Shown here in pieces: positions 2,586 to 30,865 of a DNA stretch of 32,000 nt. Every line of letters starts with the position of its first letter. Position 1 is the first letter of the stretch. Made by a program: the position numbers and the translations under genes. Under the pieces are notes generated by a model. It searched no databases. It saw only the letters and a program-made list of their open reading frames with translations, and was not told the DNA's origin. Origin of the DNA: Candidatus Electronema aureum (GTDB lineage: Bacteria; Desulfobacterota; Desulfobulbia; Desulfobulbales; Desulfobulbaceae); contig NQJD01000006.1 in NCBI GenBank assembly GCA_004284765.1, forward strand, positions 30,001 to 62,000, given 5' to 3'.

Positions 2586-2987
2586 ATGGTGGTCGCAGGT
2601 AAAAAAGGGCAGAATACTCGGCGCGAGGTGCGCATCCGCATCTCCAGACCAATCAGTACCTCGTTGTCTGCAAACACGGTTACGGCAGCGCAGTCCCACA
2701 GCAGCCGAGAGCACATCTCCAACGACTTTTTGCGGCTGCTGACTCGATTATTGCTGACAGCGGGTATTATTGTGCTGGTCTTGAGCCAATTGCTGCACTG
2801 GCGGATCAGCAAGGAGAGAGCAGAATTAGAACGGGTAGCAACAATCAATGTTGATGTGCGCCAAAAACATGCCAAACTGACCACTCAGCGGGACGAATTG
2901 GCATCTAAGCCGCGCATTGTCGCCTCTGCCGCTGCCAAATTAGGCTTACATCTCCCGACTAAAGAGCAGGAACATCAGCTCGATTGA
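2586..2987 (+). CDS. ftsL: FtsL-like cell division protein
   Basis: Small ORF between rsmH and the PBP gene. It has a basic N-terminus, a single TM (LLTRLLLTAGIIVLVLSQLL), then a charged coiled-coil-like stretch and ...AAAKLGLHLP. Start chosen at ATG 2586; the track ORF from 2544 would overlap rsmH. Confidence 0.6.
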   Translation: MVVAGKKGQNTRREVRIRISRPISTSLSANTVTAAQSHSSREHISNDFLRLLTRLLLTAGIIVLVLSQLLHWRISKERAELERVATINVDVRQKHAKLTTQRDELASKPRIVASAAAKLGLHLPTKEQEHQLD

Positions 2988-9319: not shown

Positions 9320-10366
9320 GTGAATTCAAGTTCCCGTTAAGTAGTCTCGCCAAAATAGCTCTTTTGGTGTTTTAAATCCAAGAGATTTTCGAGGCCTGTT
9401 GTTGAGCTTTTCCATAATAGCTTTGACATCCTGTGTGTCCAGCGTGTCAAAGCTCGCTCCTTTTGGGAGGTATTGCCGTATAAGTCCGTTCGTATTTTCG
9501 TTGAGCCGCGCGTTGCCAAGCCTGATACGGATGCGCGAAGAAGCAGTCTGCCTGAAGAGTGCTTGCGAACTCCTGATGCAAGGCAAATTCCTTGCCGTTA
9601 TCGCAGGTTAGGGTATGAACTTGGGCTTGGCAGGGAAGAAGGGCTTAGACAAGTGCCTGATTGACGCTATCTGCCCGTTTATTCGGGGCAAGAGCGATAA
9701 CTCGCGTCTTCCGTTCTGCCAAGGTGACAAGAACAGCTCCTCCCCGACGTATCCACCTCCCAATCACCAATCCGAGAACGTTCTTCAACTATGCTGGGGC
9801 GATGATCTATCGAGACCCGGTTTTTAATCGTGCCCCGTCGGTCAGTGCTGCCATAACGTTTTCTTCTTTTTTTTCGGCAGCGTAGATGGATATACAGAGT
9901 TCCTCCTTGCTGCTTGTCATGGGCAACATGTTGATAGATTCGTTCATGGCTGACCTGAAGATTTTTGGTTGCGGAGAGCCAGCCGCTGATGTGTTCAGGA
10001 CTCCAATCTTCGCAGAGAAGATCATTGACAATATGCCATATTTCTTCAGAAATTTTCAGCTTGGCCTTTTCTTGGCGGCGTTGACCAGACAGTTGTTGTG
10101 CCTGCTGGGGCCAGCCGCGTTCACCGCAATTACGCTGCAATTCTCGACCGATAGTTGATCTGTGTCGGCCAAGCTGCAAGGCTATCGCTGATTTCTGATG
10201 CCCTGCTTGCTTTAACGCGTAAATTTGGTTACGCTCTGCTTCGGTGAGTTGTGTGTAGTTTTTCATCCGTGCTCCTCTTGCTTGCCGGTAAGAAATGATC
10301 CATCATACTACCACAACTCACTTTTCTTACAACCAGACAAAAGTTGCACTTACAAGTTGAATTCAC
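9320..10366 (-). mobile_element. IS30-family insertion sequence (about 1.05 kb), decayed
   Basis: Terminal inverted repeats GTGAATTCAAGTT (9320-9332) and the complement of AAGTTGAATTCAC (10354-10366) match at 12 of 13 positions. They enclose an IS30-type transposase reading frame. No obvious target-site duplication. Confidence 0.75.
9326..10266 (-). pseudogene. IS30-family transposase, disrupted by two frameshifts and one in-frame stop
   Basis: The N-terminal part is intact (MKNYTQLTEAERNQIYALKQAGHQKSAIALQLGRHRSTIGRELQRN...WSPEHISGWL...RIGDWEVDT). The frame breaks near 9743-9752. The middle part reads in another frame (GGAVLVTLAERKTRVIALAPNKRADSVNQALV*ALLPCQAQVHTLTCDNGKEF) with a TAA at the complement of 9645-9647. 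A second frameshift lies near 9495-9500 within QRGSTENTNG. The C-terminal part (LIRQYLPKGASF...NNRPRKSLGFKTP) is the track ORF 9326-9586. Confidence 0.85.
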
Positions 10367-10606: not shown

Positions 10607-11074
10607 ATGAAACTTTGCATCACCGCAGCAGGAAACACCTTGTCCGCGCCGACAGACAGTGCCTTTGGCCGCGCGCCGTGGTTCATGCTTATTGACACTG
10701 ATTCCGGGGCGGCGGAAGCCCTTGCCAACAGCTCCGCCGACGCGGTGCAGGGCGCAGGCATCGCAGCGGCCCAGCTCATGGCTGAACACAAGGTCGAAGC
10801 CGTTTTGACCGGCAGGCTGGGGCCGAAGGCGCAGGCCGCCCTTGCCGCCGCAGACATCGCCATGCACGAAGGCTTGGGCCGCTGCACGGTTGAAGAAGCC
10901 TTGACGCAGTTCCGCGCCGGACACTATGCCGCCGCAGGTGCTGGCCCGACTGCCGGAACTGCGGTCTCTGCGGCTCCCGCCGCAGGCGCCGGTCAAGGAC
11001 AGGGCAGAGGCATGGGCGGCGGACGCGGCCAAGGCTGCGGCAGATGCGGCGGTGGCGGGAGGGGGCGGCGGTGA
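10607..11074 (+). CDS. NifX/NifB-like FeMo-cofactor-binding-domain protein with C-terminal Ala/Gly then Gly/Arg-rich tail (DUF5320-like)
   Basis: Reads MKLCITAAGNTLSAPTDSAFGRAPWFMLIDTDSG...AGIAAAQLMAEHKVEAVLTGRLGPKAQAAL, the pattern of the Nitro_FeMo-Co domain. The tail is ...GQGQGRGMGGGRGQGCGRCGGGGRGRR. Strong SD before ATG 10607. Confidence 0.8.
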   Translation: MKLCITAAGNTLSAPTDSAFGRAPWFMLIDTDSGAAEALANSSADAVQGAGIAAAQLMAEHKVEAVLTGRLGPKAQAALAAADIAMHEGLGRCTVEEALTQFRAGHYAAAGAGPTAGTAVSAAPAAGAGQGQGRGMGGGRGQGCGRCGGGGRGRR

Positions 11075-12015
11075 GCGCGAAACTCCGCCCGGAGATCATC
11101 CGGGCCTTTCATCAGACTCCCTTCGCTGTGCCGGTGATCGGCATCACCGGCGGCAAGGGCGGGGTGGGCAAAACCACGGTGGCGGTCAATCTCGCCGCAG
11201 CCTTGGCCGCGCTCGGCAAAAAAACTGCGCTGATTGACGCGGATGTTGACGCGCCCAACTGCGGCATACTTCTCAGCCTGCCTTTGGCGGAGCCGCAGGA
11301 TGTGGCCGTGACCCAGCCTGTTTTTGTCCCGGAGTACTGCACCGACTGCCAGCTGTGCGTCAAAGCCTGCGGCATGAACAGCCTGTTCCGGGCCAAGGAA
11401 AAAACCATCACCCTGATGGGCGAATGCAACGGCTGCGAAGCCTGTTTTCTCGTCTGCCCGGCAGAAGGGGCCATGCTCAGGGGGCAGCATTCTGTTGGAA
11501 CCACATATAAAAACAGCCGGGGCAGGCTGACGCTCTATACCGGCGCGCTGCATCCCGGACTGGCGGAAAGCGCGCTGGTGGTGACGGCGGTCAAAGAGCG
11601 GGCTTTCGCCGAGGCCGGGCAGTTCGACATCATCTTGGTTGACACCGCGCCCGGCACCCACTGCAACGTGATCGGCGCGCTCAAGGGCGCGGCTTGTGCG
11701 CTGGCTGTGACTGAGCCGACCCCACTGGGCGCGCACGATCTCGGCCTGATGCTTTCCTTGCTTGACATGTTCGAGGTCAGCAAAAGCGTGGTGGTCAACC
11801 GGGCTGATCTGCCGGGCCGGATGGAGGACATCCGCGCCGTTGCCGCTGAACATGGCGCCGCTGTCAGCGCCGAGCTGTTGCTGGACAAGGCCCTGCTGAC
11901 TAGCTATGTCGAAGGCGTGCCGGTGGTGGAATCCAGCCCGGATTCCGCTGCGGCCAAAATTTTCATGGAGATGGCCGAAGGTCTTGCAGCCTGCGCCAAG
12001 GAGGTGCGGCAATGA
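11071..12015 (+). CDS. MinD/ParA-type P-loop ATPase with inserted 4Fe-4S ferredoxin domain (COG1149-like)
   Basis: Has the deviant Walker A GITGGKGGVGKTT, plus IDADVDAPN, Cys clusters CTDCQLCVKAC and CNGCEACFLVCP, and DTAPGTHC. A GTG at 11071 overlaps the upstream stop (GTGA); the track start ATG 11044 is an alternative. Confidence 0.85.
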   Translation: MSAKLRPEIIRAFHQTPFAVPVIGITGGKGGVGKTTVAVNLAAALAALGKKTALIDADVDAPNCGILLSLPLAEPQDVAVTQPVFVPEYCTDCQLCVKACGMNSLFRAKEKTITLMGECNGCEACFLVCPAEGAMLRGQHSVGTTYKNSRGRLTLYTGALHPGLAESALVVTAVKERAFAEAGQFDIILVDTAPGTHCNVIGALKGAACALAVTEPTPLGAHDLGLMLSLLDMFEVSKSVVVNRADLPGRMEDIRAVAAEHGAAVSAELLLDKALLTSYVEGVPVVESSPDSAAAKIFMEMAEGLAACAKEVRQ

Positions 12016-12902
12016 AAGAAATCGTAGTGTTGAGCGGAAAAGGCGGCGTGGGCAAATCCTCGCTAACCGCCGCGCTCGGCCATCTGCTGGCCGAAGGGGG
12101 CAGACGGATCACCTTGGCGGACACCGACGTGGACGCGCCCAATCTGCATATTGTTCTCGGCGCGGAATTTGACAGCAGCAGCGGTGTCACCGCCTCGAAC
12201 AAGGCGGTGATTGATTACGACCGTTGCAGCCGCTGCCTGAAATGTGCGGAAGTCTGCAAGTTCGCCTCGATCATCGGCGGCGAGGAGCCAGTGGTGATCA
12301 GCTATTCCTGCGAGGGCTGCGGAGCCTGCGCCATTGTCTGCCCGACCGGCGCGATCACTGTCCAGCCGGTGGAGAACGGCAGAATCAATCTGGTCCGCCA
12401 CGGCTCCATCCGGGTGGTGGCGGGCGAACTGGGCATCGGCGAATCCAGTTCCGGACGGCTGGTGGATTTCGTTAAAAAACGGGCCAGACAGGAGGCCGCC
12501 CTGAGCGGATGCAGCCTGCTGCTCACTGACGGTCCGCCCGGCATCGGCTGCCCGGTGATCGCTTCGCTGAAAGGTTCTGACTACGCGGTGCTGGTGACGG
12601 AGCCGACTCCCTCCGCCTTCAGCGATTTGCAGCGAGCGGCGGAAGTGCTGCGCGGCTTCAAGGTGCCTGCGGGCGTTGTCATCAACCGGGCGGACATGCA
12701 CCAGAAATCAAAGGAAACCCTGCTGGCGTGGATGGCCGAGGCCGGACTGCCGCTGCTGGCGGAAATTCCTTACGATCCGCAGCTGCCCCAAGCCTTGGCC
12801 CAAGGCTGTCTCGGCGTGGTCATCTACCCTGACGCGCCGTCCTCGCTGGCCATCAGGCAGTTGAGCGAAACCGTGGCCGCCATGCTGGACGACGGCCATT
12901 GA
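12012..12902 (+). CDS. second MinD/ParA-type P-loop ATPase with inserted 4Fe-4S ferredoxin domain (COG1149-like paralogue)
   Basis: Has LSGKGGVGKSS, ADTDVDAPN, CSRCLKCAEVC, CEGCGACAIVCP and DGPPGIGC. ATGA overlap with the upstream gene. Confidence 0.85.
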   Translation: MKEIVVLSGKGGVGKSSLTAALGHLLAEGGRRITLADTDVDAPNLHIVLGAEFDSSSGVTASNKAVIDYDRCSRCLKCAEVCKFASIIGGEEPVVISYSCEGCGACAIVCPTGAITVQPVENGRINLVRHGSIRVVAGELGIGESSSGRLVDFVKKRARQEAALSGCSLLLTDGPPGIGCPVIASLKGSDYAVLVTEPTPSAFSDLQRAAEVLRGFKVPAGVVINRADMHQKSKETLLAWMAEAGLPLLAEIPYDPQLPQALAQGCLGVVIYPDAPSSLAIRQLSETVAAMLDDGH

Positions 12903-12908
12903 AAAAAC

Positions 12909-12941
12909 GGGATCAGGAGGCAGCCGCTGTTTCCTGATCCC
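12909..12941 (-). terminator. intrinsic terminator hairpin between convergent operons (probably bidirectional)
   Basis: Perfect 10-bp stem GGGATCAGGA (12909-12918) / TCCTGATCCC (12932-12941). On the minus strand the stem is followed by GTTTTTTC (complement of 12901-12908). On the plus strand an A-run precedes it. It overlaps the last codons of the DUF134 gene. Confidence 0.55.
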
Positions 12942-13245
12942 GGCATTCCGCTGTCCCGTCTTCCTCCTCGCCAGCCAAAACCAATGCCGCGCCGGAAACC
13001 AGAGCTTCAGCGGTTTTTCGGCGGGCTGAGGCGAGCAGACGCTGCACGGTGCCGCGCGACACGCCCATCCGCTCGCCCGCCTGCTCCTGAAACAGCCCCT
13101 CCAAATCGCAGAGCCGGAGGGCTTCCAGCTCGTCCCGGAACAGGCTGATCTGCTGGATGTTGCGCATGGGAATGCCGTTCGGCTTGAAAATCTGACCGGA
13201 AAAGCGGCCCTCACAACAGCGCTGTTTTTTCGGGCGCGGCGACAT
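12913..13245 (-). CDS. DUF134 (UPF0251) family putative DNA-binding protein
   Basis: Reads MSPRPKKQRCCEGRFSGQIFKPNGIPMRNIQQISLFRDELEALRLCDLEGLFQEQAGERMGVSRGTVQRLLASARRK, matching the DUF134 pattern (PRPKK.R.., F.P.GIP, DE.EA.RL.D.EGL.QE.AA..MGVSR.T). Start at the internal ATG 13245, 1 nt after the upstream stop. Confidence 0.8.
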   Translation of the reverse strand: MSPRPKKQRCCEGRFSGQIFKPNGIPMRNIQQISLFRDELEALRLCDLEGLFQEQAGERMGVSRGTVQRLLASARRKTAEALVSGAALVLAGEEEDGTAECRDQETAAAS

Positions 13246-13246
13246 C

Positions 13247-13654
13247 TCAGTGGTGCTGGCAGCTGCCGCCTTCATGTCCTTGGCAGGTCTGCTCAGGCCG
13301 CATCTGCGGGAACTTGCCTGCCAAAAAGCCGTCCGCTGCGGCGCTTACATTTTGCAGCGCATTGCGGTCTGCATAATAAACCGCAATTCCTGCCTCGGCA
13401 AAAGCCTGCATAGGCCGCGCGCCCATGCCGCCGACCACAATCGCCCCCACGCCCTTGTCTCGCAGCAAATTGACCGGTGCCAAGCAGCCGCCCGCGCTGT
13501 GCGCCACATTGTTGACAGTATCAACCGAGGCAACTTTGCCTTCCTGAATGTTGATCAGGGTGAAAAGGTCGCAGTGGCCGAAATGACCGGAGATATTTGC
13601 AGCCAAGCCGCCGGGATTATCGGAAGGCACTGCAAGCATAATAGATGAAGTCAT
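13247..13654 (-). CDS. NifX/NifB-like FeMo-cofactor-binding-domain protein with Cys/His-rich C-terminus
   Basis: Reads MTSSIMLAVPSDNPGGLAANISGHFGHCDLFTLINIQEGKV...LLRDKGVGAIVVGGMGARPMQAFAEAGIAVYY and ends CQGHEGGSCQHH. The SD (complement of CTCCT, 13663-13667) supports ATG 13654 rather than the track start 13726. Confidence 0.8.
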   Translation of the reverse strand: MTSSIMLAVPSDNPGGLAANISGHFGHCDLFTLINIQEGKVASVDTVNNVAHSAGGCLAPVNLLRDKGVGAIVVGGMGARPMQAFAEAGIAVYYADRNALQNVSAAADGFLAGKFPQMRPEQTCQGHEGGSCQHH

Positions 13655-13928
13655 AATTTGTACTCCTGCTGAAGTATTGTGATGTTGCGGCGGATGGCCG
13701 CAGCTGAATGTTTTAAACATATGCACATTATGTAACCTGCCCAGCTTCCGCTGTCAATAAGGAATTGGACTACCTTCAGGCAAAAATCCAGTGGCAGTTG
13801 ATAGACAAGCGCAGCAGAATAGTGTACTTTGCAAGATTTTATCCACTTTCAGGCAAGGATGCGTCTGTCTTTGCCACATCCCAGAATAAGGGCAGAAATG
13901 GACATCGCTTTTTTCTGCCAGAATATCC

Positions 13929-14516
13929 ATGCGTACACGACTTCTTTTTTTGTTCCGGGCTAGCATATCGCTGCTCTTATTTCTACTTCTGCTGACTTGG
14001 TCAGCGGCAGAGGCTGATGATGAGGGCGGCCAGCCAGTCATCGCCGATATCACGCTTACCGCTTCCAGTGGCCAGCTACGGCTCTCTGCTGCGGTAAAAA
14101 ATTGTTTTACCAAAGAGATGCTGGAAGGGGTGCATAATGCCATCCCGGTCACGTTTCGCTTTAAGGTCAGCTTAGAGCGCAGCCGGAGCTACTGGTTTGA
14201 TCAAGACCTTGAAGAGCTGAGTGTTAATCACACTCTGAGCTATGATCCCCTTCGGCGGGAATATCAGATCGATTTTTCCGAGAAAGATCATCCAAAAACA
14301 ACCCGTTCACTGGCAGAGGCAGAGCGAATGATGGCAGAGCTGAAACATATAGAAATCGCCCAGCTAAAAGAACTGAGTTCCGGCGCGTCGTATGTCCTCC
14401 ATATCAAAGCCACGCTGGCCGAGAACACTCTGCCGCTGAGTATGCACTCCATCATTCCTTTCACGTCGCTGTGGAATTTTGAAACCGACTGGCGAGTGAT
14501 TGAGTTCAAATACTGA
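13929..14516 (+). CDS. secreted DUF4390-like protein
   Basis: Has a signal-peptide-like N-terminus (MRTRLLFLFRASISLLLFLLLLTWSAAEA). Its position directly upstream of an NtrY-like kinase is the usual DUF4390 context. The family label is from recollection only. Confidence 0.6.
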   Translation: MRTRLLFLFRASISLLLFLLLLTWSAAEADDEGGQPVIADITLTASSGQLRLSAAVKNCFTKEMLEGVHNAIPVTFRFKVSLERSRSYWFDQDLEELSVNHTLSYDPLRREYQIDFSEKDHPKTTRSLAEAERMMAELKHIEIAQLKELSSGASYVLHIKATLAENTLPLSMHSIIPFTSLWNFETDWRVIEFKY

Positions 14517-14533
14517 CAAATGCCTCTGGTTTG

Positions 14534-16759
14534 ATGCTGAGTCCTGAGCAGAAAAAACACAAACAGCGGTTAATTCGCTGGGTCATTGCTTTTTGCCTCC
14601 TGCTGATTCCCTTGCTCATTTGGATTCAACGGCGACTGCTTTGGGGCGACCTGAATCTGCCGGTGTCCAGCACCGTGTTGATATTCGCTCTGATCAACAT
14701 CAACGGCCTGCTTTTGTTGTTGATGCTCTATCTAATTTTGCGCAATCTGGTTGAGCTAATTTTCGAGCGACGTAATGGCATCCTTGGGGCGCGGCTGCGA
14801 ACTAAGTTAGTTGCCGCCTTTGTCTCTCTGTCAATTATTCCTACCGCTGTGCTGTTTTTTTTCGCTCTTGGCTCGGTTTCCACCTCGATGGATTATTGGT
14901 TTAATACCAATGTCGAGGAATCGCTGGAATCTTCGCTCAAGCTGGCCCAAGACATGTTTCAGGAAACCGAAAACCGGGCGGCCAACATGGGCAGACAGAT
15001 CGGGCTGCTAATGGAGAATGTTGATATCAGCTTAGAGGACAGCAGCGGTCTTCAGCAGCTCTTTAGTAGCACCATCGCCCTTGCGCCTACTGGCACACCA
15101 GATGCGCTGATGTTGATTGATCGAAAATTAGGCATTCGGGCTACAGCTAAAGGGGAGCGATTAGCTTCGGTCGCCCTGCCAGACATGCCGAGCGAGGCTT
15201 TACGTCGAGCAGCACTCAGCGGCAGCCCGGAAATCATCACTCGGCAGGTGCGCAGCGGCGAGTTAATTCAAGCCATCGTGATAGTACGATTGAAAAATCA
15301 GCATCGGGCTTTCCTTGTCACCAGTTTGCTGATTCCGGCGGACAAATTAGCTTTAATGCAGTCGGTCTCGCAAGGCATCACTGGCTACAAACAGTTGATT
15401 TTGCTCAAGGCACCGATCAAATTAAGCCTGATCATTATGCTGCTGATCGTCACCCTGCTCATCCTTTTCGGCGCAATTTGGTTCGGTTTCTACATTGCCC
15501 GCTCGATGACCGCTTCGATCAATAAGTTGGCCGAAGCCACGCAGCGGGTGGCAAGTGGCGAGCTGAATTTCACTATTGAGAAGGATTCAGATGACGAAAT
15601 GGGCCTGTTGGTGGATTCCTTCAATTCGATGACCTCAGACCTGCTGGCCAGCAACTGCCAGTTAGCCGAGGCGCATCAGGCTTTGCAGCAGTCTAATCTG
15701 CTTTCCGAGCAACGCCGCCGCTATCTGGAGGCCATCCTCAGAAACGTGGCGGCGGGGGTCATCGCCATCAACGAGCAGCATCAGGTCACGATCATTAATC
15801 CTTTTGCCGAAAAGCTGCTTCGTTTAGATACTGCGCTTTTTCTCAATCATGATTTTCATGAGGTGCTGCCGCTGTCCCATGCGGCGGTATTGGAGCAATT
15901 TTTCAGCGATTTGCGCGAATCCGGCCAGCGTTCGATTGAACGGCACCTTAGCTTAACCGTGCGTAAGGGGGAGACCTATTCTCTCTTGGTCAATATCACC
16001 CGCCTATTAGACGACAAAGAGCGGCCTATCGGTTATGTTATTGTTTTCGATAACCTGACTAAATTAGAACGAGCACAGCGATTAGCAGCTTGGCAGGAGG
16101 TGGCCCGCCGCATCGCTCATGAAATAAAAAACCCGCTCACGCCAATTCAGCTTTCGGCCCAGCGGCTGCGAAAACGCTATTTAGAAAGCATTAGCAAAGA
16201 CCGGGAGATTTTTGACCAATGTACAGCCACGATCATTAATCAGGTCGATGAGATCAAACGCTTGGTCACAGAATTTTCAGAATTCGCCAGAATGCCACAA
16301 ATTAAAAAACAGCAAGCGGATATTGCTGCTCTTGCCTCCGACACCTTGGTGCTGTATCGTGAGGGCTGTAAGCATATCATTTTCCACTTAGAAAAGAACA
16401 ATATCCAGCCGTTCTCCTTTGATTCAGTGCAAATCCGGCGAGTGCTGATCAATCTGTTAGATAATGCGGTCAGCGTACTGGGCGAGGGCGGAGAGATCAG
16501 CATCACCCTCGGCCTGAATCAGGAGCAGCAAACGGTGAGCCTTACGGTCAGCGATAACGGCCCTGGCATCCCGGAGCCGGTCAAGGTGCGGCTTTTTGAA
16601 CCCTATTTTTCTACCCGCAAATCCGGCACTGGCCTTGGTTTAGCCATAGCCAACACCATCGTTGCCGAGCACAACGGCTCCATTCGGGTGCAGGACAATT
16701 TGCCCACCGGCACCGCAGTTGTAGTGGAGCTGCCTTTTTTGCCTGAGGAAACAAAATAA
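14534..16759 (+). CDS. NtrY-like membrane sensor histidine kinase (TM-HAMP-PAS-HisKA-HATPase)
   Basis: Has several N-terminal TM segments and a second TM before a HAMP-like region. The H-box is RIAHEIKNPLTPIQLSAQRL, and the ATPase boxes are LLDNAV, DNGPGIP and GTGLGLAI. ATG 14534; TTG 14531 is in the track. Confidence 0.85.
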   Translation: MLSPEQKKHKQRLIRWVIAFCLLLIPLLIWIQRRLLWGDLNLPVSSTVLIFALININGLLLLLMLYLILRNLVELIFERRNGILGARLRTKLVAAFVSLSIIPTAVLFFFALGSVSTSMDYWFNTNVEESLESSLKLAQDMFQETENRAANMGRQIGLLMENVDISLEDSSGLQQLFSSTIALAPTGTPDALMLIDRKLGIRATAKGERLASVALPDMPSEALRRAALSGSPEIITRQVRSGELIQAIVIVRLKNQHRAFLVTSLLIPADKLALMQSVSQGITGYKQLILLKAPIKLSLIIMLLIVTLLILFGAIWFGFYIARSMTASINKLAEATQRVASGELNFTIEKDSDDEMGLLVDSFNSMTSDLLASNCQLAEAHQALQQSNLLSEQRRRYLEAILRNVAAGVIAINEQHQVTIINPFAEKLLRLDTALFLNHDFHEVLPLSHAAVLEQFFSDLRESGQRSIERHLSLTVRKGETYSLLVNITRLLDDKERPIGYVIVFDNLTKLERAQRLAAWQEVARRIAHEIKNPLTPIQLSAQRLRKRYLESISKDREIFDQCTATIINQVDEIKRLVTEFSEFARMPQIKKQQADIAALASDTLVLYREGCKHIIFHLEKNNIQPFSFDSVQIRRVLINLLDNAVSVLGEGGEISITLGLNQEQQTVSLTVSDNGPGIPEPVKVRLFEPYFSTRKSGTGLGLAIANTIVAEHNGSIRVQDNLPTGTAVVVELPFLPEETK

Positions 16760-21417: not shown

Positions 21418-22248
21418 TCAGTTTGGCAAAGAAATAGAAGCGGCTTCCATAGAAGAAGGTACTGGCAGATGGCATTCGTCCAGCAGTTCAGCCACCCGCT
21501 GCTGAAGAATTGCGGCCAGCTCCTGCTTGTCTTTAGCCTTGAAATTTTTGGTCGGCAAGGGCGTACCGATGCGCAGCACCACCTCGCCGCCACGTGAGAG
21601 CAGCTTTCCTTTGGGCAGGGCCTGATAGGTGCCGTTGAAACCCACTGGCACCACCTCTACCCCGGCCTTGATCGCCAGCATGACCGCGCCGGTCTTGAAA
21701 GGCTGGAGCCGTCCGTCTGGGCTGCGGGTTCCTTCCGGGAAAAGAATAACCGAACTACCTTCGGCGATGCGTTGCGCTGCATCATTGAGGCTTTGCACCG
21801 CTTCCCTGCCGTGCGAGCGGTCGATAGAAATGAAATCTACCGCTTTCATGCCAGTGCCAAAGATGGGGATAGCGAACAGCTCTTTTTTGGCAATCCAGCG
21901 GTAATCGTGGGTGATATAGCCGGAAAAGGCCATGATGTCCGCCATGCTGCAATGATTGCCGATGAAGATGTAGGGCTTGGCTTGATCAAGCTGCTCACCG
22001 CCTTCTACCCGCACTCGGATGTTGGCAAGACGACAGAGGATACGACCCCAAGCACGAGGAAACTGCTGGGCTTGGGACTTAGATTTGCGAAACCAGCGCA
22101 CATCGGTCATCGCGCTCAAGCAGACGATAGCGGTCAAAGGCGGAATAGTAAGCAGAGCAAGAATGCCTCGCAGGAGCTGTATCGGAGAAGTAAAAGAGGC
22201 CATTGGTTTGTAGTCAGAAAGAATCGCCGTCATCGGCAGTGTCGTCAT
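21418..22248 (-). CDS. plsC: 1-acyl-sn-glycerol-3-phosphate acyltransferase family protein
   Basis: Has the HX4D motif NHCSMAD, plus FPEGTRSPDG and an N-terminal TM. The start is uncertain: the track start 22248 overlaps the upstream gene by 35 nt, and internal ATGs at 22233 or 22203 are alternatives. Confidence 0.8.
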   Translation of the reverse strand: MTTLPMTAILSDYKPMASFTSPIQLLRGILALLTIPPLTAIVCLSAMTDVRWFRKSKSQAQQFPRAWGRILCRLANIRVRVEGGEQLDQAKPYIFIGNHCSMADIMAFSGYITHDYRWIAKKELFAIPIFGTGMKAVDFISIDRSHGREAVQSLNDAAQRIAEGSSVILFPEGTRSPDGRLQPFKTGAVMLAIKAGVEVVPVGFNGTYQALPKGKLLSRGGEVVLRIGTPLPTKNFKAKDKQELAAILQQRVAELLDECHLPVPSSMEAASISLPN

Positions 22249-23422
22249 CGTCTAACGGTGCAATCAACTGCTTTGCTTCTAATAATAAAGCAGGCCACGG
22301 CGCGGCAGAATCAGCATGAATGCTATTGAGTAATTCATCAGGAAAAAAGAGAAAATCCTTTTCTAACTCATTGCCTATGAACTCATCCCGAAAGCGAGTG
22401 ATCAGGTTCAAATGCGCCCAGCGGGTCAGATAGTAAATAACCAGACGGGGCAGGCGGGTGTAGATGTTCTCATCCGGGGTCAGATCAACAAAGCTGGATT
22501 CTTGCAGCTTCTTGGTTGAGAGCACTTGGGGCTGATAGACATTCTTGAGAAACATGTACTCTGGCGGCAGCCGAGCGGTGATGCCGAACCAACTTAGAAA
22601 ACTGGCCACCCGCTCCAGAACGTATTTGCCGCCCATGACTACTGGATACGGCACGTAAATCTCTCGCGGGGTCTTTACCTCTAAATAGGCGCGGATGGTT
22701 AGAATCAGGTCATCTAATTCTACTGGATCTTTGTCGGCAAAATGATAGGTCTGGCCAGAAAACTCCTCGCGGTGCAGCAAAACATGATGAACAAAGGCAG
22801 GAATCTTCGCCGCATTGGTGTATGAATGCTTTATTCCTCTCTTGGTGAAAAGAAAAGGCATCGATTCATCAGCAATAGCAAAGAGCAAACGGTGAAAACC
22901 TTGAATCTTATGGTCATGCTCACCGTAAACAATAGAGACCCTAATGATGGTGCAGTCTAACCCATGCTGCTGCATCATGTGTTCCAAGGTCTTCTCAGCC
23001 ATGAGCTTGGACTTTGCGTAGTTACTCAGGTTGGGACTCAGGGGAAGCTGATCTTCCTCAGCCAAATTTTCGCCGTGCGGCAGAGTGGCGGCGGTGCTAA
23101 AATGGATATAGGGAATGCCAAGTGCGCAGCAGGCTCGCGCTATGTTGACGCTGCCAAGATAGTTGACCTCAAAGGCTAACTGGGCATCCGAGTCCAGCGA
23201 GGCCATCGACGCATTGATGACAAAATCAGGCCGCACCCGCTGGAGATAAACAATGATATCTTGAGCGTTGCGGATAGACAGCTTTTTAGAACTGGGCGCA
23301 CGAATATCAAAGTCGTCCGGGGTCTTGGTCTTGAAATAATGCGCTAAGGTTCCACCGATCAGGCCAGAGCCACCGATCAGCACGCCAAGACAGCGTTTCT
23401 TTTTCTGGAGCACCTGATCCAT
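22214..23422 (-). CDS. NAD(P)-dependent epimerase/dehydratase-family (extended SDR) protein with ~150-aa C-terminal extension
   Basis: Has the Rossmann motif VLIGGSGLIGGTL, the catalytic YxxxK (NYAKSK), and an acidic tail DDDDTADDGDSF. Confidence 0.75.
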   Translation of the reverse strand: MDQVLQKKKRCLGVLIGGSGLIGGTLAHYFKTKTPDDFDIRAPSSKKLSIRNAQDIIVYLQRVRPDFVINASMASLDSDAQLAFEVNYLGSVNIARACCALGIPYIHFSTAATLPHGENLAEEDQLPLSPNLSNYAKSKLMAEKTLEHMMQQHGLDCTIIRVSIVYGEHDHKIQGFHRLLFAIADESMPFLFTKRGIKHSYTNAAKIPAFVHHVLLHREEFSGQTYHFADKDPVELDDLILTIRAYLEVKTPREIYVPYPVVMGGKYVLERVASFLSWFGITARLPPEYMFLKNVYQPQVLSTKKLQESSFVDLTPDENIYTRLPRLVIYYLTRWAHLNLITRFRDEFIGNELEKDFLFFPDELLNSIHADSAAPWPALLLEAKQLIAPLDDDDTADDGDSF

Positions 23423-23873: not shown

Positions 23874-25130
23874 ATGTCAAATTCTATTCATGCTTCAGTT
23901 GGGGAGCAGGGAAAGAATCGCCCTGATGATGTGCGACAGGTTTTCTTGTTGTTGAATGATATCCGCACAGAACCTTTAGCGGTAAGTGATCAATGTTCGC
24001 CAGAGCTGATTCAAGCGATTAAAGATTTTCAGAAAAATTTCTTGGCACAGCCTGACGGTCGAATTGATGTTGGCGGCAGGACTTGGGAAAAACTCATTGC
24101 TACCGCCGCAGGATCAAGTAATCACGTCAACTCGCTACCACCGGGCAATGAACAAGACAAAGAATTTGACATTGAATTTTCAACATTAAATTTGGAAGAT
24201 AATGACAAATATCAATTTGAGTTCAAAACAACAGGAACATCGATAGGATTCAAAGTAGCGATTGACGGTGGAAGAAAAAGCGGCCTTTTTCTTCCTGAAA
24301 ACTCAGCAACGCATCTTGAAGGAGAAGTTGTGTCCTACAGACTTTCAAGATTACTTGGGGTCAGTGAGATATTCAACCCAGTTGCGTATTACACCTTAAA
24401 AGCAAATGCAATCCGTCGCTTCAAACTGATGCTCAGATCTGACGAAAAAAGCAAATGGCGGCGGGAAAATACCGAGACTCTTTTAAAGAGAATCGACGAA
24501 AGTCCTTCGTTTATGCTTGGAATCTATAAATACAGGCATAAAAGAAAATCACAGCCAGTCGATAAATTAATCATTTCCAACGGCCTCAATCGGCAGCACA
24601 GGATGGCCCAGCTGATCAATGCTGAAGGTACTATGCCTTCAAAAAAAGCAATCACTTTGGAGAAGGTATCTCCTGATAAACCTGAATATCCCATACCAAA
24701 AGAAAGTGAATCTGTTTTAGCCAAGCAGTTATCAATTATTTTCACCATCGATATGCTGACCGGGCAATGGGACAGATTCAGTGGAGGAAATATAGAGGTT
24801 TATGCGCATAAGGACGGTCGTCTTCAGTTTGTTGCACGAGATAACGGCGGCAGTCATTTGCTTTGGGGATGGAATTGGTTTAATAAATACCGTAGTTGGC
24901 TGACGAGATTTGACTCTGACTTGATTCAAGAACTTAGGCTAATGAAGACCTTTTTAGATGGCAAGTCAGACGAATACAACGGAATCGTATCCACAGTTAG
25001 TTTTGCGGATATTGTCGGTTTTACCAACGAAAGAACATTCAAGGCGTTCAAAGAAAAACTTGATATTTTTCTTTCTGATCACGTACAATCCTGTGAGGAT
25101 AGATTCGGAAAAAAATGCTACTTCAGCTAA
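23874..25130 (+). CDS. two-domain protein: N-terminal peptidoglycan-binding-like module + C-terminal Fam20/PI3-4K/HipA-like atypical kinase fold
   Basis: The N-terminal 74 aa are shared with the next gene. The C-terminal region has EGEVVSYRLSRLLGVSEIFNPV and IDMLTGQWDRFSGGNIEVYAHKDGRLQFVARDNGGS (catalytic-loop-like D-R..N plus a DNG metal-binding-like motif). No signal peptide. AT-rich codon usage. Confidence 0.55.
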   Translation: MSNSIHASVGEQGKNRPDDVRQVFLLLNDIRTEPLAVSDQCSPELIQAIKDFQKNFLAQPDGRIDVGGRTWEKLIATAAGSSNHVNSLPPGNEQDKEFDIEFSTLNLEDNDKYQFEFKTTGTSIGFKVAIDGGRKSGLFLPENSATHLEGEVVSYRLSRLLGVSEIFNPVAYYTLKANAIRRFKLMLRSDEKSKWRRENTETLLKRIDESPSFMLGIYKYRHKRKSQPVDKLIISNGLNRQHRMAQLINAEGTMPSKKAITLEKVSPDKPEYPIPKESESVLAKQLSIIFTIDMLTGQWDRFSGGNIEVYAHKDGRLQFVARDNGGSHLLWGWNWFNKYRSWLTRFDSDLIQELRLMKTFLDGKSDEYNGIVSTVSFADIVGFTNERTFKAFKEKLDIFLSDHVQSCEDRFGKKCYFS

Positions 25131-25176: not shown

Positions 25177-26010
25177 ATGCCCGTTTCTATAACAGCTTCA
25201 GTGGGAGAACGTGGTGAGAATCGCCCGGATGATGTGCGGCAGATTTTCTTGTTGCTGAATAAAAACAGAACGCCACCTTTAGTAGTAAGCGATCAATGCT
25301 CAATAGAGCTGATTCAAGCAATTAAAGAATTCCAGAAAGATTTCCTAACCAATCCTGATGGACGGATTGATGTCGGCGGCAGAACTTGGAAAGAACTAAC
25401 CGAATCAAATGAAGTGCATGAAAACGAAAAGAAAGTGCTTCTGTCCTTTGATGATGGCCCTCTTCCTGAAGATGCTCTTAATTCCATTCTTGCCACCTTA
25501 CAATCTCATCATATCAAAGCTGAGTTTTACGTTCTCGGTGCTGAAGTAGATCGTCATCCAAAGGCTGCAAAAAAAATAGCTGATCAAGGCCACAGTCTCC
25601 AGAATCATTCCTACAGTCATATTGATCTGTCTAAGGCGAGCAAAGAGGTCGTGATGACCGAGTTGCGGAAAACTCAAGAAAGCATCAAAAATGCTGCTGG
25701 AGTAACAGCAACGAAAGTTCGCCCGCCCTACGGCGCAGGTGGCTGGCCTGCCCATCATGATCCTGAGTTGGCTCAGGTTGCAGCCAGCTTGTCCTTGAAG
25801 ATTGAAAACTGGGATATCGATACCGAAGACTGGAAGACTCCAAAAGGTATCGGATCGACCAAGCTGACTATGATCAAAAAGCAGTTTACTCAGCAGCAGA
25901 GCAAGCTGCTGCTGAATGTGCTGATGCACGTCCAGAGCGAGACCGCCAGAGACCTTGAGAGTTTTATTGCCCAGCTGAAAAGATGGGGGTACTCCTTTGC
26001 CAAACCGTGA
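25177..26010 (+). CDS. two-domain protein: same N-terminal peptidoglycan-binding-like module + NodB-type polysaccharide/peptidoglycan deacetylase
   Basis: The NodB motifs are intact: LSFDDGP, NHSYSH and VRPPYG. The N-terminal 74 aa match the previous gene at 57 of 74 positions (hand count). No signal peptide. The RBS GGAGGAG lies before ATG 25177. Confidence 0.8.
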   Translation: MPVSITASVGERGENRPDDVRQIFLLLNKNRTPPLVVSDQCSIELIQAIKEFQKDFLTNPDGRIDVGGRTWKELTESNEVHENEKKVLLSFDDGPLPEDALNSILATLQSHHIKAEFYVLGAEVDRHPKAAKKIADQGHSLQNHSYSHIDLSKASKEVVMTELRKTQESIKNAAGVTATKVRPPYGAGGWPAHHDPELAQVAASLSLKIENWDIDTEDWKTPKGIGSTKLTMIKKQFTQQQSKLLLNVLMHVQSETARDLESFIAQLKRWGYSFAKP

Positions 26011-26386
26011 ACAATTCCGGCGGCAATTCTTTGCCACGCTACTGCTGGCGATCCTGCTGATCAGTTGCGTGGCTCAAGCGCAGCCTCTCTTGGAGCAGGC
26101 CAGTAGCAGCTACAAGCTCCGCAAAGACTACGCCAGCTTAGAGGTGATTCATCGCCACTTAGCTCTTGGAATGGCCCGCCCTGCTGTGGAAACCTTGCTC
26201 GGCGAAGCAGATTATTCCCCAATTGAAGGGCAATATTACTATCTCTCCGACCGACGGGAAAGACAGAAAGATGCAGGAGAAGAGCAGGGAGAAGCATCTG
26301 TGGGATTGGTGCTTGATTACCGGAATAAGCAAGGTGAACTGACAGACGCGCTACAGACCTTCTGGCTTGGGGTACTTGGTGAATAA
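25997..26386 (+). CDS. small lipoprotein, BamE/SmpA-OmlA-like
   Basis: The TTG start overlaps the deacetylase 3' end by 14 nt. The signal peptide carries a lipobox (LLLAILLISC). GMARPAVETLLGEADYSP...YYYL resembles the BamE/SmpA fold pattern. Confidence 0.6.
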   Translation: MPNREQFRRQFFATLLLAILLISCVAQAQPLLEQASSSYKLRKDYASLEVIHRHLALGMARPAVETLLGEADYSPIEGQYYYLSDRRERQKDAGEEQGEASVGLVLDYRNKQGELTDALQTFWLGVLGE

Positions 26387-26391
26387 ACAGC

Positions 26392-27234
26392 ATGAGATGT
26401 TTACGCACCACCACCCTTGGTTATTCCCCCTGTCCTAATGATACCTTTATTTTCTGCGGTCTTGTGCAAGGCAAGATACCCCTCAGCCATGTCTGCTTTG
26501 CCGAGCCGCAGCTTGAAGATGTAGAAACCCTCAACAGCTGGGCAATGCAGGGGAGCTTGGACGTAACCAAGCTCTCTGTTCATGCCCTTGGCTATCTGCT
26601 GGATTCATATACCCTGCTTGACTCTGGCGCAGCCTTAGGCCGAGGCTGTGGGCCGCTCTTGGTGACAGCGCAAGCAACAGCACCACAAGCTAAGGGCGAT
26701 CTCGCCGCATGGACTATCGCTATTCCAGGGCAATACACCACCGCTGCTTTACTCCTCCGGCTTTTCCTACCCAAGTCATGCCGTACTGTTGTAGTCATGC
26801 GCTTCGACCAGATCATGGACGCAGTGGTATCAGGCCAAGTAGATGCAGGCGTGATTATTCATGAAAGCCGCTTCACCTATCAAGAGCGCGGCCTCCTCTG
26901 CGTGCAGGACTTAGGCGTATGGTGGGAGCAGGAAACCGGCTTGCCTCTTCCGCTGGGCTGTATTGCCGCTCGAAAAGACCTCGCCACAGAGGTACTTCGA
27001 GAAACCGAACAGGCCATTACGGAAAGCATTCGTTGGGGTTACGCGCATCTGGATGAATGCCGCAGCTACATCCGTCAACACGCCCAAGAGATAGACGATA
27101 AGGTACTTACCAGTCACATCAATCTGTATGTGAATGATTTCTCTCTGCGGTTAGGCGAGGAAGGTCGAGCGGCAATACAGGAGCTGCTGCGTCGAGGCCG
27201 TGCAGCTGGGGTCTTTACTATACCTCTCGCATAA
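26392..27234 (+). CDS. mqnD: 1,4-dihydroxy-6-naphthoate synthase (futalosine pathway)
   Basis: The N-terminal LGYSPCPNDTFIFCGLVQGKI is typical of MqnD. The length and the VitK2-biosynthesis-type fold family fit. Starts 5 nt after the lipoprotein gene. Confidence 0.8.
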   Translation: MRCLRTTTLGYSPCPNDTFIFCGLVQGKIPLSHVCFAEPQLEDVETLNSWAMQGSLDVTKLSVHALGYLLDSYTLLDSGAALGRGCGPLLVTAQATAPQAKGDLAAWTIAIPGQYTTAALLLRLFLPKSCRTVVVMRFDQIMDAVVSGQVDAGVIIHESRFTYQERGLLCVQDLGVWWEQETGLPLPLGCIAARKDLATEVLRETEQAITESIRWGYAHLDECRSYIRQHAQEIDDKVLTSHINLYVNDFSLRLGEEGRAAIQELLRRGRAAGVFTIPLA

Positions 27235-30028: not shown

Positions 30029-30865
30029 ATGGCCCGCATCGGCATGGTCAATTACATCAACATGGCACCGATTTATGAGGTATGGAAGGAGCAGGTGCGC
30101 CGTCCTGACTGGATCATGCTTGATGCCCCGCCTGCGCAGCTCAACCGCCTGCTGGCTGCTGGTTCGATTGATCTTGGCTTTGTCTCGGCCTACGAGTACG
30201 CTGCCCGTCCGTGGCTGTACCGACTCATGGCTGATCTGTCCATCTCCGCTACCGGGCCAGTGGGCAGCGTCTTCCTTTTCTCCTCCGTGCCACCAGAGCA
30301 GTTAGACGGCAAGTTAGTGCTGCTCACCGGCCAATCCGACACCTCGGTCTGCTTGCTGCGGCTGATCTTAGAGGAATTCATCAAGGTCAGGCCGCGCTAT
30401 GTGCGAGGGGAAATCTTTGCTCCGCACACGCCTGCTGAAAAGCCTGCGGCACTGCTGGCTATTGGCGACGAAGCCCTGCGCCTCAATGCCGCGCCTGATC
30501 CACGCTATCCAGTACAGATTGATCTGGGAGAATGCTGGCATCAGCAGACTGGCCTGCCTTTTGTTTTTGCGGTCTGCGCGGTGCGCGAGGACTTTCTTCA
30601 GGGTAACACAGAGGTAGCGCGGGAGATACAGCAAACGCTTATTAGCTGTCGAGAACAGGGCTTGGCCCGCTTATCGGAAATCTGCACCAAGGCCGCAGCC
30701 CGCATTCCCCTGATGACTGCGGCAGCTTGCCTGCGCTATTTCCAGTCGATAGAGTACGACCTTAGCCCGATCAAGCAAGAGACCTTGGCGCGGTTCTTTG
30801 CGCTGCTGATCCAGCGTGGTGAGGCCAGTCCTGCCGCCCTGCCGCTGAAGCTCTTTCCCTGCTGA
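30029..30865 (+). CDS. mqnA: chorismate dehydratase (futalosine pathway)
   Basis: MARIGMVNYINMAPIYEVW... is the typical MqnA N-terminus. It is a paralogous fold to MqnD and is followed by ubiE/menG and ubiX. Confidence 0.8.
   Translation: MARIGMVNYINMAPIYEVWKEQVRRPDWIMLDAPPAQLNRLLAAGSIDLGFVSAYEYAARPWLYRLMADLSISATGPVGSVFLFSSVPPEQLDGKLVLLTGQSDTSVCLLRLILEEFIKVRPRYVRGEIFAPHTPAEKPAALLAIGDEALRLNAAPDPRYPVQIDLGECWHQQTGLPFVFAVCAVREDFLQGNTEVAREIQQTLISCREQGLARLSEICTKAAARIPLMTAAACLRYFQSIEYDLSPIKQETLARFFALLIQRGEASPAALPLKLFPC

Follow-up and report, generated by a model that had tools for sequence, protein, structure and literature searches.

The gene at positions 23874–25130 (forward strand) of a 32,000-nucleotide stretch of Candidatus Electronema aureum DNA (assembly GCA_004284765.1, contig NQJD01000006.1, positions 30,001 to 62,000; hereafter the window) raises the question of whether a cable bacterium employs a kinase-like enzyme at its cell envelope and, if so, how such an enzyme could operate with a leucine in place of the lysine that customarily binds adenosine triphosphate (ATP). 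An initial annotation of this locus, made from the sequence alone, had proposed an atypical kinase fold of the Fam20, PI3/PI4-kinase or HipA type fused to a cell-wall-binding module. The open reading frame (ORF) encodes 418 amino acids (aa), with neither a signal peptide nor an N-terminal hydrophobic segment, and its product consists of two domains, i.e. a module with the PG_binding_1 fold and an atypical protein-kinase-like domain of the Fam20/PI4KII-like type, joined by a linker. In the following, evidence from structure prediction, profile comparison and residue conservation is presented which leads us to predict, with slightly better than even confidence, that the protein is an active, non-canonical phosphotransferase acting on a component of the envelope.

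An AlphaFold2 (AF2) model of the protein, built on a 30-sequence homologue alignment, attained a mean predicted local distance difference test score (pLDDT) of 86, with residues 90–418 (positions 24141–25127) mostly above 90 and residues 1–89 at only 50–65 in the same run. The N-lobe of the modelled domain comprises strands β1 (residues 113–117), β2 (126–130) and β3 (135–141), followed by a helix equivalent to αC (148–160) and further strands, and the later elements are a long helix (279–296), a loop, two strands (308–311 and 316–321), a DNG motif and a helical C-terminal half. This succession of strands and helices is the one seen in kinases, and the predicted domain is a bilobal kinase fold. 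When the model was compared with the PDB using Foldseek, ranks 1–19 were all occupied by Fam20C and Fam20A chains (E-values of 6.5e-7 to 2.7e-5, probability 1.0), with template modelling (TM) scores of 0.43–0.47 as normalised on all 418 residues. The second-best group was PI4KII-alpha (4hnd/4hne, 1e-4 to 1.5e-3), while bacterial kinases of the HipT/HipA type (7vkb, 8ezs (HipT), 4pu3 (HipA)) followed at 0.009–0.05 and other kinases trailed. The top 50 PDB matches were kinases almost throughout, CotH structures were not among these 50 listed matches, and a search of a viral structure library likewise returned kinases. The kinase-like fold, as first interpreted from the sequence, is thus borne out by the AF2 model and by the Foldseek matches to Fam20, PI4KII-alpha and HipT/HipA, of which those to Fam20 structures are significant (down to 6.5e-7). 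The outcome that had been named as refuting it, a lack of kinase-like structural matches, did not occur.

Searches with sequences and sequence profiles gave no Pfam, NCBIfam or PDB sequence match for residues 90–418. Phmmer and a profile of the 30 homologues yielded noise only among PDB sequences (RanBP2/Nup358 and D-lactate dehydrogenase, E-values of 0.04–2), and no kinase family was recognised when the 30 homologues and 10 distant homologues were scanned one by one against Pfam, the sole traces being PI3_PI4_kinase (0.14) and actin-fragmin kinase (0.012), in one member each. The Pfam Fam20C model found no match at an E-value of ≤1 in the window protein, the 30 family members or the 10 distant members, the HipA_C, CotH and Kdo/WaaP models found none in the same sequences, and a PHROGs search produced nothing for the C-terminal domain. 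Similarity to Fam20 is detectable only at the profile–profile level: hhalign matched a 103-sequence alignment of diverse members of the bacterial family to a Fam20 alignment (human Fam20C, zebrafish Fam20C1, human Fam20A and C. elegans Fam20, taken from PDB alignments) with a probability of 92.7% and an E-value of 4.3e-7 over 294 columns across both lobes. The controls, a reversed Fam20 alignment and PKA, each reached 0.1% (with an E-value of 0.45 for the former). Given this difference and the Foldseek E-value of 6.5e-7, the resemblance to kinases exceeds chance.

The profile comparisons also set a limit to how closely the family can be placed. A distant subgroup that retains the β3 lysine is unambiguously homologous to the main clade (100%, 3.8e-50) and matched PI4KII-alpha (89%, 2.4e-6) better than Fam20 (36%), and the main clade without this subgroup attained a probability of only 13% against Fam20. 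A specific sister relationship to Fam20 is therefore unproven, and the sequence profiles bring the family no nearer to Fam20 than to PI4KII. In our reading, the bacterial proteins constitute a new family within the protein-kinase-like superfamily which has Fam20 and PI4KII as neighbours, resembles Fam20 most in structure and is assignable to neither; we further take the lysine to be the ancestral state of the family, subsequently lost in the branch to which the window protein belongs.

Individual residues of the putative active site could be placed by the same alignments. In the hhalign alignment D300 falls opposite the catalytic Asp of Fam20C, D323 (of DNG) opposite the DFG-type Asp and E151 opposite the αC Glu. 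The Gly-rich-loop equivalent KTTGTSIGFKV (residues 118–128, positions 24225–24257), which contains the candidate substitute lysines K118 and K127, is matched to KSGGTQLKLIM of Fam20C; the β3 strand GLFLPEN (137–143, 24282–24302) to ALFKPMK, so that L140 falls on the FKP lysine; the αC helix EGEVVSYRLSR (149–159, 24318–24350), with E151 as the equivalent of the canonical Glu, to NAEIAAFHLDR; DMLTGQWDRF to DFLMGNMDRH; and RDNGGS to LDNGRG. The catalytic loop DMLTGQWDRFSGGN (293–306, 24750–24791), in which D300 is the putative catalytic base and N306 a putative metal ligand, aligns to DFLMGNMDRHHYE of Fam20C and to DYIIRNTDRGNDN of PI4KII-alpha, and DNGG (323–326, 24840–24851) represents, by alignment, the DFG-equivalent metal-binding motif. 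When the numbering of Fam20C is anchored on D478, the Asp of DNG and the standard site of kinase-dead mutation, L140 corresponds to K285, E151 to E311, D300 to D458 and D323 to D478. PI4KII-alpha, the sequence of which was checked against 4hnd, aligns in the same register (GSSGSYFV...AVFKPKN with GTSIGFKV...GLFLPEN, NTDRGNDN with QWDRFSGGN, and IDNGLA with RDNGGS). The Asp/Asn/Asp set of the superfamily is thus present, since D300, N306 and D323 align to their counterparts in both Fam20C and PI4KII-alpha, while only the Glu of the β3 Lys/αC Glu pair is found (E151, with Leu at position 140). In Fam20, the FKP lysine forms an ion pair with a Glu located five residues upstream of the canonical αC Glu (E213 in the C. 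elegans protein), and Fam20A is a pseudokinase partly through a Gln at this position (PMC5865150). The window protein has T146 at this position and hence lacks either partner of the Fam20 ion pair, but it retains the canonical E151.

These alignments bear directly on the motif argument of the initial annotation. Its by-eye alignment, in which FKP of Fam20 reads FLP, is reproduced by hhalign, and the parallel it drew with the Fam20 catalytic loop (D-R...N plus DN(G/A)) holds, as D300, D323 and EVVSYRLSR/EIAAFHLDR are each paired. Both quoted strings, EGEVVSYRLSRLLGVSEIFNPV (residues 149–170, positions 24318–24383) and LSIIFTIDMLTGQWDRFSGGNIEVYAHKDGRLQFVARDNGGSHL (residues 286–329, positions 24729–24860), were verified by translation within the ORF, as were GLFLPEN and FKVAIDGGRK (residues 126–135); their separation, given as about 130 aa, measures 137 aa from start to start. 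Position 24140, from which the feature had been drawn, falls at residue 90, where the confidently modelled domain begins. One item was misattributed: the string quoted as Fam20C (IDMAIFDFLIGNMDRHHYE...FLIHLDNARGF) is that of the pseudokinase Fam20A, whereas human Fam20C, in a sequence identical to PDB chain 5yh3_C over 357 residues, reads MDMTIFDFLMGNMDRHHYE...FIIHLDNGRGF. The argument from the motifs is not affected by this exchange.

The conservation of these residues was assessed across the 103 members. The catalytic loop is nearly invariant at D293 (102/103), Q298 (97), D300 (101), R301 (102), G304 (96) and N306 (102), as is the DNG motif (D323 in 102, N324 and G325 in 101 each). S123 (97/103) and G121 (84/103) are conserved in the Gly-rich-loop equivalent, S287 and P255 are retained in 96 and 95 members, respectively, and a family-specific, near-invariant motif, RFD (residues 345–347, positions 24906–24914), is found in the C-lobe (R345 in 100, F346 in 87 and D347 in 84 members). 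Column 140 is variable by comparison, with Leu in 44, Val in 17, Lys in 14 and Ile in nine members, the lysine being kept only in the most distant, VFKPTSG-type subgroup; column 151 holds Glu in 80 members and Gln in 22. As for lysines that might compensate, position 127 is Lys or Arg in 53 of the 103 members and K118 is present in 48; K118, K127 and R/K134 are invariant in the window protein's own clade, and K138 occurs only in a GKW[LV]PxN clade, including two Bdellovibrionota loci (L009 and L016), which carries Q151 and not E151. A search for a compensating lysine by covariation revealed no clean pattern, and K127 and K140 are not mutually exclusive.

The family is both large and predominantly exported. 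A profile search of 1.84 billion cluster representatives retrieved 555 clusters at an E-value of ≤1e-3, of which 94 were at ≤1e-30. Among species-representative genomes it was found in one cable bacterium (the Ca. Electronema metagenome-assembled genome, MAG), in Verrucomicrobiota (Roseibacillus, Prosthecobacter, Chthoniobacterales and Spartobacteria) and in Bdellovibrionota (Bdellovibrio sp. HCB337, Bacteriovorax and Oligoflexia). According to a crude heuristic of hydropathy and lipobox, 91 of 102 relatives possess an N-terminal signal-like segment, and at least 17 a lipobox; the closest relatives outside the cable bacteria, which are 52–58% identical and found in Roseibacillus and other Verrucomicrobia, carry signal peptides. 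In contrast to this, the window protein and its four orthologues have no signal-like segment and begin directly with the module of approximately 80 residues, and they consequently lack the signal peptide or anchor through which Fam20 proteins enter the secretory pathway. The architecture of longer relatives (a CHAT fusion and weak TPR only) was not informative; the CHAT fusion concerns a 500-aa family representative (P0165) in which an N-terminal CHAT protease domain (9.6e-26) is joined to the C-lobe part of the kinase-like domain, an arrangement unlike that of the window protein.

Of the known systems, Fam20 (PF06702), which includes the protein kinase Fam20C, the xylose kinase Fam20B and the pseudokinase Fam20A, is the closest structural neighbour. 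The two share the order of motifs (a Gly-rich loop, an F-x-P strand, an E-x-x-x-[FY]-x-L-x-R helix, a D-x-L-x-G-x-x-DR loop, DNG for DFG, and a long C-terminal helix) as well as a mostly exported membership. They differ in that the present family is bacterial and its window member bears a PG_binding_1-fold module in place of a signal anchor, that the Cys-rich N-lobe insertion of Fam20 (CFYGECSYYCSTEHALCG) was not seen on reading the aligned sequences, that the catalytic loop is one residue longer (D-x5-N), and that the FKP Lys and the ion-pair Glu are replaced by Leu and Thr, respectively. The local motifs of PI4KII are strikingly parallel (AVFKPKNEEP with GLFLPENSAT, IDNGLAF with RDNGGSH), but the window protein has no Lys in its FxP and no insertion of the palmoylation type (CCPCC), and PI3_PI4_kinase (PF00454) matched just one of 30 scanned members, at 0.14. 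PI4KII enzymes are lipid kinases of eukaryotic endomembranes, and nothing in the window protein points to a lipid substrate. The likeness to HipA/HipT, whose Foldseek matches are much weaker than those of Fam20, is that of the superfamily fold, and no HipB- or HipS-type partner gene is present, the neighbours being an epimerase and a deacetylase gene. WaaP and KdkA provide examples of kinase-fold sugar kinases that act on envelope glycolipids. Within Fam20 itself, Fam20B is a xylose kinase (PMC5865150), and as the family thus includes both a glycan kinase and a pseudokinase, it brackets the possibilities for the window protein. WNK and POMK lack the β3 Lys and employ one from their Gly-rich loop instead, POMK being a secretory-pathway glycan kinase first labelled a pseudokinase (PMC5142810). 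With the window protein they share no specific kinship in sequence or structure, the analogy being confined to mechanism, and many family members have neither K118 nor K127.

The N-terminal module occupies the start of the protein (residues 1–78, positions 23874–24107) and is followed by the linker AGSSNHVNSLP (residues 79–89, positions 24108–24140; pLDDT below 50 for residues 78–86). The reading frame opens at the earliest start codon that follows an in-frame stop, a ribosome-binding site of the GGGGTAAG type lies ahead of it, and four orthologues (P0001–P0004; 63–66% identity over the full length) begin at the same residue; for these reasons the gene is real and without a hidden N-terminal extension. 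The same gene order is also found around it in the Ca. Electronema MAG. Pfam PG_binding_1 matches residues 18–73 below its gathering score (0.0057; 17.3 bits against a cut-off of 23), while paralogous copies of the module exceed the threshold (33.6 bits in P0017, 25.9 in the 573-aa protein of the MAG and 24.8 in P0039). A separate AF2 model of residues 1–80 had a pLDDT of 88 in one of five models and 57–67 in the others, with helices at 17–30, 43–53 and 69–79. Foldseek matched it to CtpB, the Streptomyces Zn DD-peptidase 1lbu, SleC, SleB-N, phiKZ gp144 and the endolysin LysT84 (probability 0.97–1.0, TMq 0.6–0.74), at E-values of only 0.03–0.4, weak as expected for a query of 80 residues; the module profile found no match among PDB sequences. 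The predicted three-helix fold is the same as that of PG_binding_1 (PF01471) in endolysins, SleB/SleC, CtpB and the Zn DD-peptidase, and in endolysins of the phiKZ gp144 type, too, the module lies N-terminal to the catalytic domain and no signal peptide is present. The cell-wall-binding-like module claimed at the outset is therefore upheld at the level of the predicted fold, through the Foldseek TM values and above-threshold paralogues of about 60% identity, the Pfam match of this copy itself lying below threshold, and its binding is putative.

The module forms a tight subfamily specific to cable bacteria (53–77% identity among paralogues) that always starts at residue 1. Many proteins of Ca. 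Electrothrix and Electronema carry it at their very N-terminus, singly or as up to three copies in tandem, among them NodB deacetylases of approximately 355 aa and proteins of 573–670 aa with no recognisable C-terminal domain. Its fusion to the kinase-like domain, which had been regarded as unusual, is indeed rare: it was found in just four further proteins, and the remaining family members have signal peptides instead. The module of the window protein shows 77% identity to residues 1–74 of the next gene's product and about 74% identity in DNA, the two copies constituting a direct repeat of some 220 bp (23874–24113 and 25177–25416, 1.3 kb apart), recombination across which could delete or swap the kinase-like domain. 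The third class of module-bearing proteins (573–662 aa; L001 7600–9321, L020 15431–17413 and L021 9001–10989) is 70–75% identical between genera, has no counterpart in the window, and its C-terminal part of about 490 residues shows no Pfam, PHROG or other recognisable domain.

The immediate neighbours of the gene have a bearing on its possible role. Upstream, and divergently oriented, lies a gene of the NAD-dependent (nicotinamide adenine dinucleotide-dependent) sugar epimerase/dehydratase type (22214–23422, reverse strand; Pfam Epimerase 1.3e-21, RmlD_sub_bind 5.3e-18). Downstream, after 46 nucleotides and a strong Shine-Dalgarno sequence (GGAGGAG), begins a gene (25177–26010, forward strand) that combines the same module (25177–25398) with a NodB-type polysaccharide deacetylase (Polysacc_deac_1, 9.7e-30), again with no signal peptide; its PdaB/NodB/PgdA-type NCBIfam matches are below the equivalog cut-offs. 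The end of the deacetylase gene is overlapped by 14 nucleotides by a gene for a small predicted lipoprotein of 129 aa (25997–26386, forward strand; lipobox LLISC), which has no Pfam family match and is 50–56% identical to the product of the ORF directly downstream of the module deacetylase in the MAG (L001) and in two further cable-bacterial loci (L020 and L021). This sequence similarity indicates that, in cable bacteria, lipoprotein and deacetylase are conserved partners. A scan for promoters and terminators returned nothing above shuffled expectation.

The order in the MAG is epimerase, kinase-like gene, deacetylase, 141-aa protein and 573-aa module protein. Two complete Electrothrix genomes have no kinase-like gene and possess the trio of deacetylase, small protein and 660-aa protein, located directly downstream, at the end, of large clusters that encode GT2/GT4 glycosyltransferases, Acyl_transf_3, a methyltransferase and a PMT_2-type transferase. 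Outside the cable bacteria, partners are shared only among closely related Verrucomicrobia (MnmA and CutA, which appear incidental), and the neighbours in Bdellovibrio and Roseibacillus are mutually unrelated. The window as a whole is ordinary chromosome, with the start of a division/cell-wall cluster (MraW, a penicillin-binding protein (PBP), a fused MurE-MurF and MraY), Fe-S ParA-type genes, an NtrY/NtrX-type two-component system, BamA, a PlsC-type acyltransferase and MqnA-type menaquinone genes; its G+C content is 53.6%, compared with 41.1% for the kinase-like gene.

The analysis shows the fold, the homology to the family, the equivalent residues, their conservation, the fold of the module and the order of the genes; activity, phosphate donor, substrate, cellular location and horizontal transfer are inferred. 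The mechanism that we favour is one in which D300 of QWDR would serve as the catalytic base, N306 and D323 (DNG) would hold the metal–nucleotide, and a residue at some non-canonical position would assume the phosphate-binding role of the missing β3 Lys (L140). Candidates for such a relocated lysine in the clade of the window protein are K127 or K118, which flank the GTSxG loop, with precedents in WNK and POMK. An active enzyme is favoured over a dead scaffold because near-invariance over hundreds of clusters is seen for the catalytic Asp, for the Asn and for the Asp of DNG. The PG_binding_1 module may hold the enzyme on the sacculus or a related glycan, where it would modify an envelope polymer and work alongside the co-transcribed NodB deacetylase, which bears the same module, and the small lipoprotein. 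Such a target is suggested by the fold of the module, by the same-module deacetylase and by the glycan-synthesis surroundings that module proteins have in other cable bacteria; if Fam20B and POMK are taken as analogues, a glycan appears somewhat more likely as substrate than a protein, a suggestion drawn from one lineage. An exported homologue of the Verrucomicrobia type is the probable source of the kinase-like part, by horizontal transfer, the signal peptide then being replaced by the cable-bacterial module, as the deviating G+C content and the 52–58% identity to signal-peptide-bearing forms in Verrucomicrobia suggest. We consider it unlikely that the finding extends to a widespread exported bacterial counterpart of the eukaryotic secretory-pathway kinases (at least 555 clusters in Verrucomicrobiota, Bdellovibrionota, cable bacteria and others). 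Enzymes of this kind would act outside the cytoplasm and transfer phosphate to glycans or proteins of the envelope or the extracellular space, the lysine-less main branch possibly with an unconventional donor; the one in cable bacteria, tethered to the wall by its lineage-specific module and arriving in the periplasm with no Sec signal, would join the same-module deacetylase in tailoring the envelope that the filament shares.

Several observations weigh against an active envelope phosphotransferase. The site has neither the canonical β3 Lys nor the Fam20 ion-pair Glu, and no substitute lysine is conserved family-wide, 44 of the 103 members having Lys or Arg at neither position 127 nor position 140; moreover, if V128 matches V57 of PKA, the side chain of K127 would point away from the ATP pocket, as far as strand register is a guide. 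The PG_binding_1 score of the window module lies under the Pfam cut-off, and just one of its five AF2 models was confident. In the window the epimerase gene is transcribed from the other strand, and all-against-all ORF clustering of 18 loci identified no conserved neighbours outside the cable bacteria, so that the case for the substrate derives from a single lineage. Finally, peptidoglycan is periplasmic, yet the protein carries no signal peptide, and the compartment to which most of its relatives are exported is believed to be devoid of ATP. This interpretation has to accommodate two puzzles, namely by what route a protein with a peptidoglycan-binding fold and no export signal would reach peptidoglycan, and which nucleotide or donor an exported enzyme would use.

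The absence of the lysine invites the explanation that the domain is a pseudokinase, the fold being kept for binding or scaffolding (of a nucleotide or an envelope ligand) or for allosteric control of the deacetylase, in the manner of Fam20A acting on Fam20C, and no phosphotransfer taking place. The replacement of both ion-pair partners (L140 and T146) and the export of the relatives to an ATP-poor compartment speak for this explanation, and the Gln by which Fam20A is partly inactivated lies at the very same Glu position (PMC5865150). Against it stand the catalytic Asp, Asn and DNG Asp, kept in 101–102 of 103 members within nearly invariant QWDRFSGGN and DNGG motifs that a structural role would not need, and POMK and WNK, which are active with no β3 Lys; we therefore regard an inactive domain as rather unlikely. 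The same combination of losses and retentions may be read as a different chemistry on a kinase fold, i.e. a flipped or altered nucleotide pose (AMPylation, glutamylation or another transfer) or a phosphate donor other than ATP, the latter suiting an extracytoplasmic enzyme. The Lys-Glu pair that positions the α and β phosphates is absent, while the metal-binding residues and the invariant R345, Q298 and S123 are retained, and kinase folds with other chemistry are exemplified by SelO (AMPylation) and SidJ (glutamylation). This explanation has no direct evidence in its favour, and the lysine-retaining subgroup displays an ordinary kinase site (VFKPTSG...E...DR...N...DNG), suggestive of ordinary phosphotransfer as the ancestral activity; it is accordingly judged improbable.

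A further alternative concerns the role of the locus and not its chemistry: the module could be a trafficking or targeting domain that a polymorphic cassette of effectors or toxins swaps onto different warheads (kinase-like, NodB and the 573–662-aa type), which would leave the cell by a non-Sec route to attack the walls or cells of competitors, with the small lipoprotein as immunity protein. One N-terminal module on at least three unrelated C-terminal domains, none with a signal peptide, would be in keeping with this, as would the small conserved lipoprotein gene directly adjacent, the deviating G+C content of the kinase-like gene, the presence of the family in predatory Bdellovibrionota and the fold shared with HipA/HipT-type toxins. 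Conversely, no secretion-system, Rhs, PAAR or VgrG genes were found in the annotated parts of the window or in related loci, there was no PHROG match (PADLOC was not searched), the surroundings are those of housekeeping and glycan synthesis, and the order is kept across cable-bacterial genera at 50–75% identity, unlike fast-shuffling toxin loci, making a toxin cassette a slim prospect. Least credible of all is that the protein is not related to kinases, its motifs having arisen by chance and the fold match being an artefact of the model. While this would account for the lack of Pfam, NCBIfam or PDB sequence matches even with family profiles, and for the 13% probability of the main clade alone against Fam20, independent evidence from structure and profiles agrees, matching motifs run through both lobes in an unchanged order, the controls remained clean, and the lysine-retaining subgroup provides a transitive link (100% to the main clade, 89% to PI4KII-alpha).

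If the window protein is indeed an active phosphotransferase, the implications would go beyond the cable bacteria. Fam20-type kinases are treated as an invention of the animal secretory pathway, and a large, mostly exported bacterial family with Fam20 as its best structural match and a profile link to PI4KII would bear on the origins of these atypical kinases; it would also raise the question whether bacteria phosphorylate targets in the periplasm or outside the cell, where the supply of ATP is problematic. The main branch, which kept the full Asp/Asn/Asp core and dropped the Lys-Glu pair, represents a natural experiment in how far a kinase site can migrate. The module shared by the kinase-like protein, the NodB deacetylase and the 573–662-aa protein marks a lineage-specific, putatively envelope-tailoring set beside glycan-synthesis clusters. 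Should the domain be inactive, the finding shrinks to one more pseudokinase family. A paper on the evolution of Fam20 makes no mention of bacteria (PMC5865150), and nothing relevant on bacterial Fam20-like families, or on links to Bdellovibrio, Verrucomicrobia or cable bacteria, was found in the searchable, open-access part of the literature. No description was found, in the libraries and open-access papers searched, of the family, for which Pfam and NCBIfam have no model, of its mostly exported nature in bacteria, of the systematic loss of Lys-Glu with the rest of the site kept or of the fusion to the cable-bacterial module; the superfamily and the PG_binding_1 fold were already known.

Additional features were noted in the window and in one related locus. 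The FtsI-like PBP gene (2984–5002, forward strand) is recognised in Pfam by PBP_dimer and PASTA alone and not by Transpeptidase; no SxxK or K[TS]G is found in the expected region at residues ~200–580, the only SxxK being at residue 623, and its product may be a catalytically dead transpeptidase. It is followed by a 1017-aa ORF (4863–7916, forward strand) with two full sets of Mur-ligase domains, which resembles a MurE-MurF fusion and, when called from its first start codon, overlaps the PBP ORF by approximately 140 nucleotides. A transposase-like gene (9679–10266, reverse strand; HTH_38/HTH_32) located right after MraY, in a dip in G+C content (46.9% at 9–10 kb), appears to interrupt this division/cell-wall cluster. 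In Ca. Electrothrix sp. GW3-4 (CP147990.1, locus L020), positions 10913–15343, between the module deacetylase and the 660-aa module protein, encode a NACHT and FGE-sulfatase protein followed by an RVT_1 reverse transcriptase and bAvd, a set that resembles a diversity-generating retroelement. Furthermore, the window holds two paralogous VitK2_biosynth genes of the MqnA/MqnD type (futalosine pathway) on the forward strand (26392–27234 and 30029–30865), which lie 3 kb apart and are separated by a gene for a DUF5661 protein (reverse strand) and a fused MobB-MobA gene.

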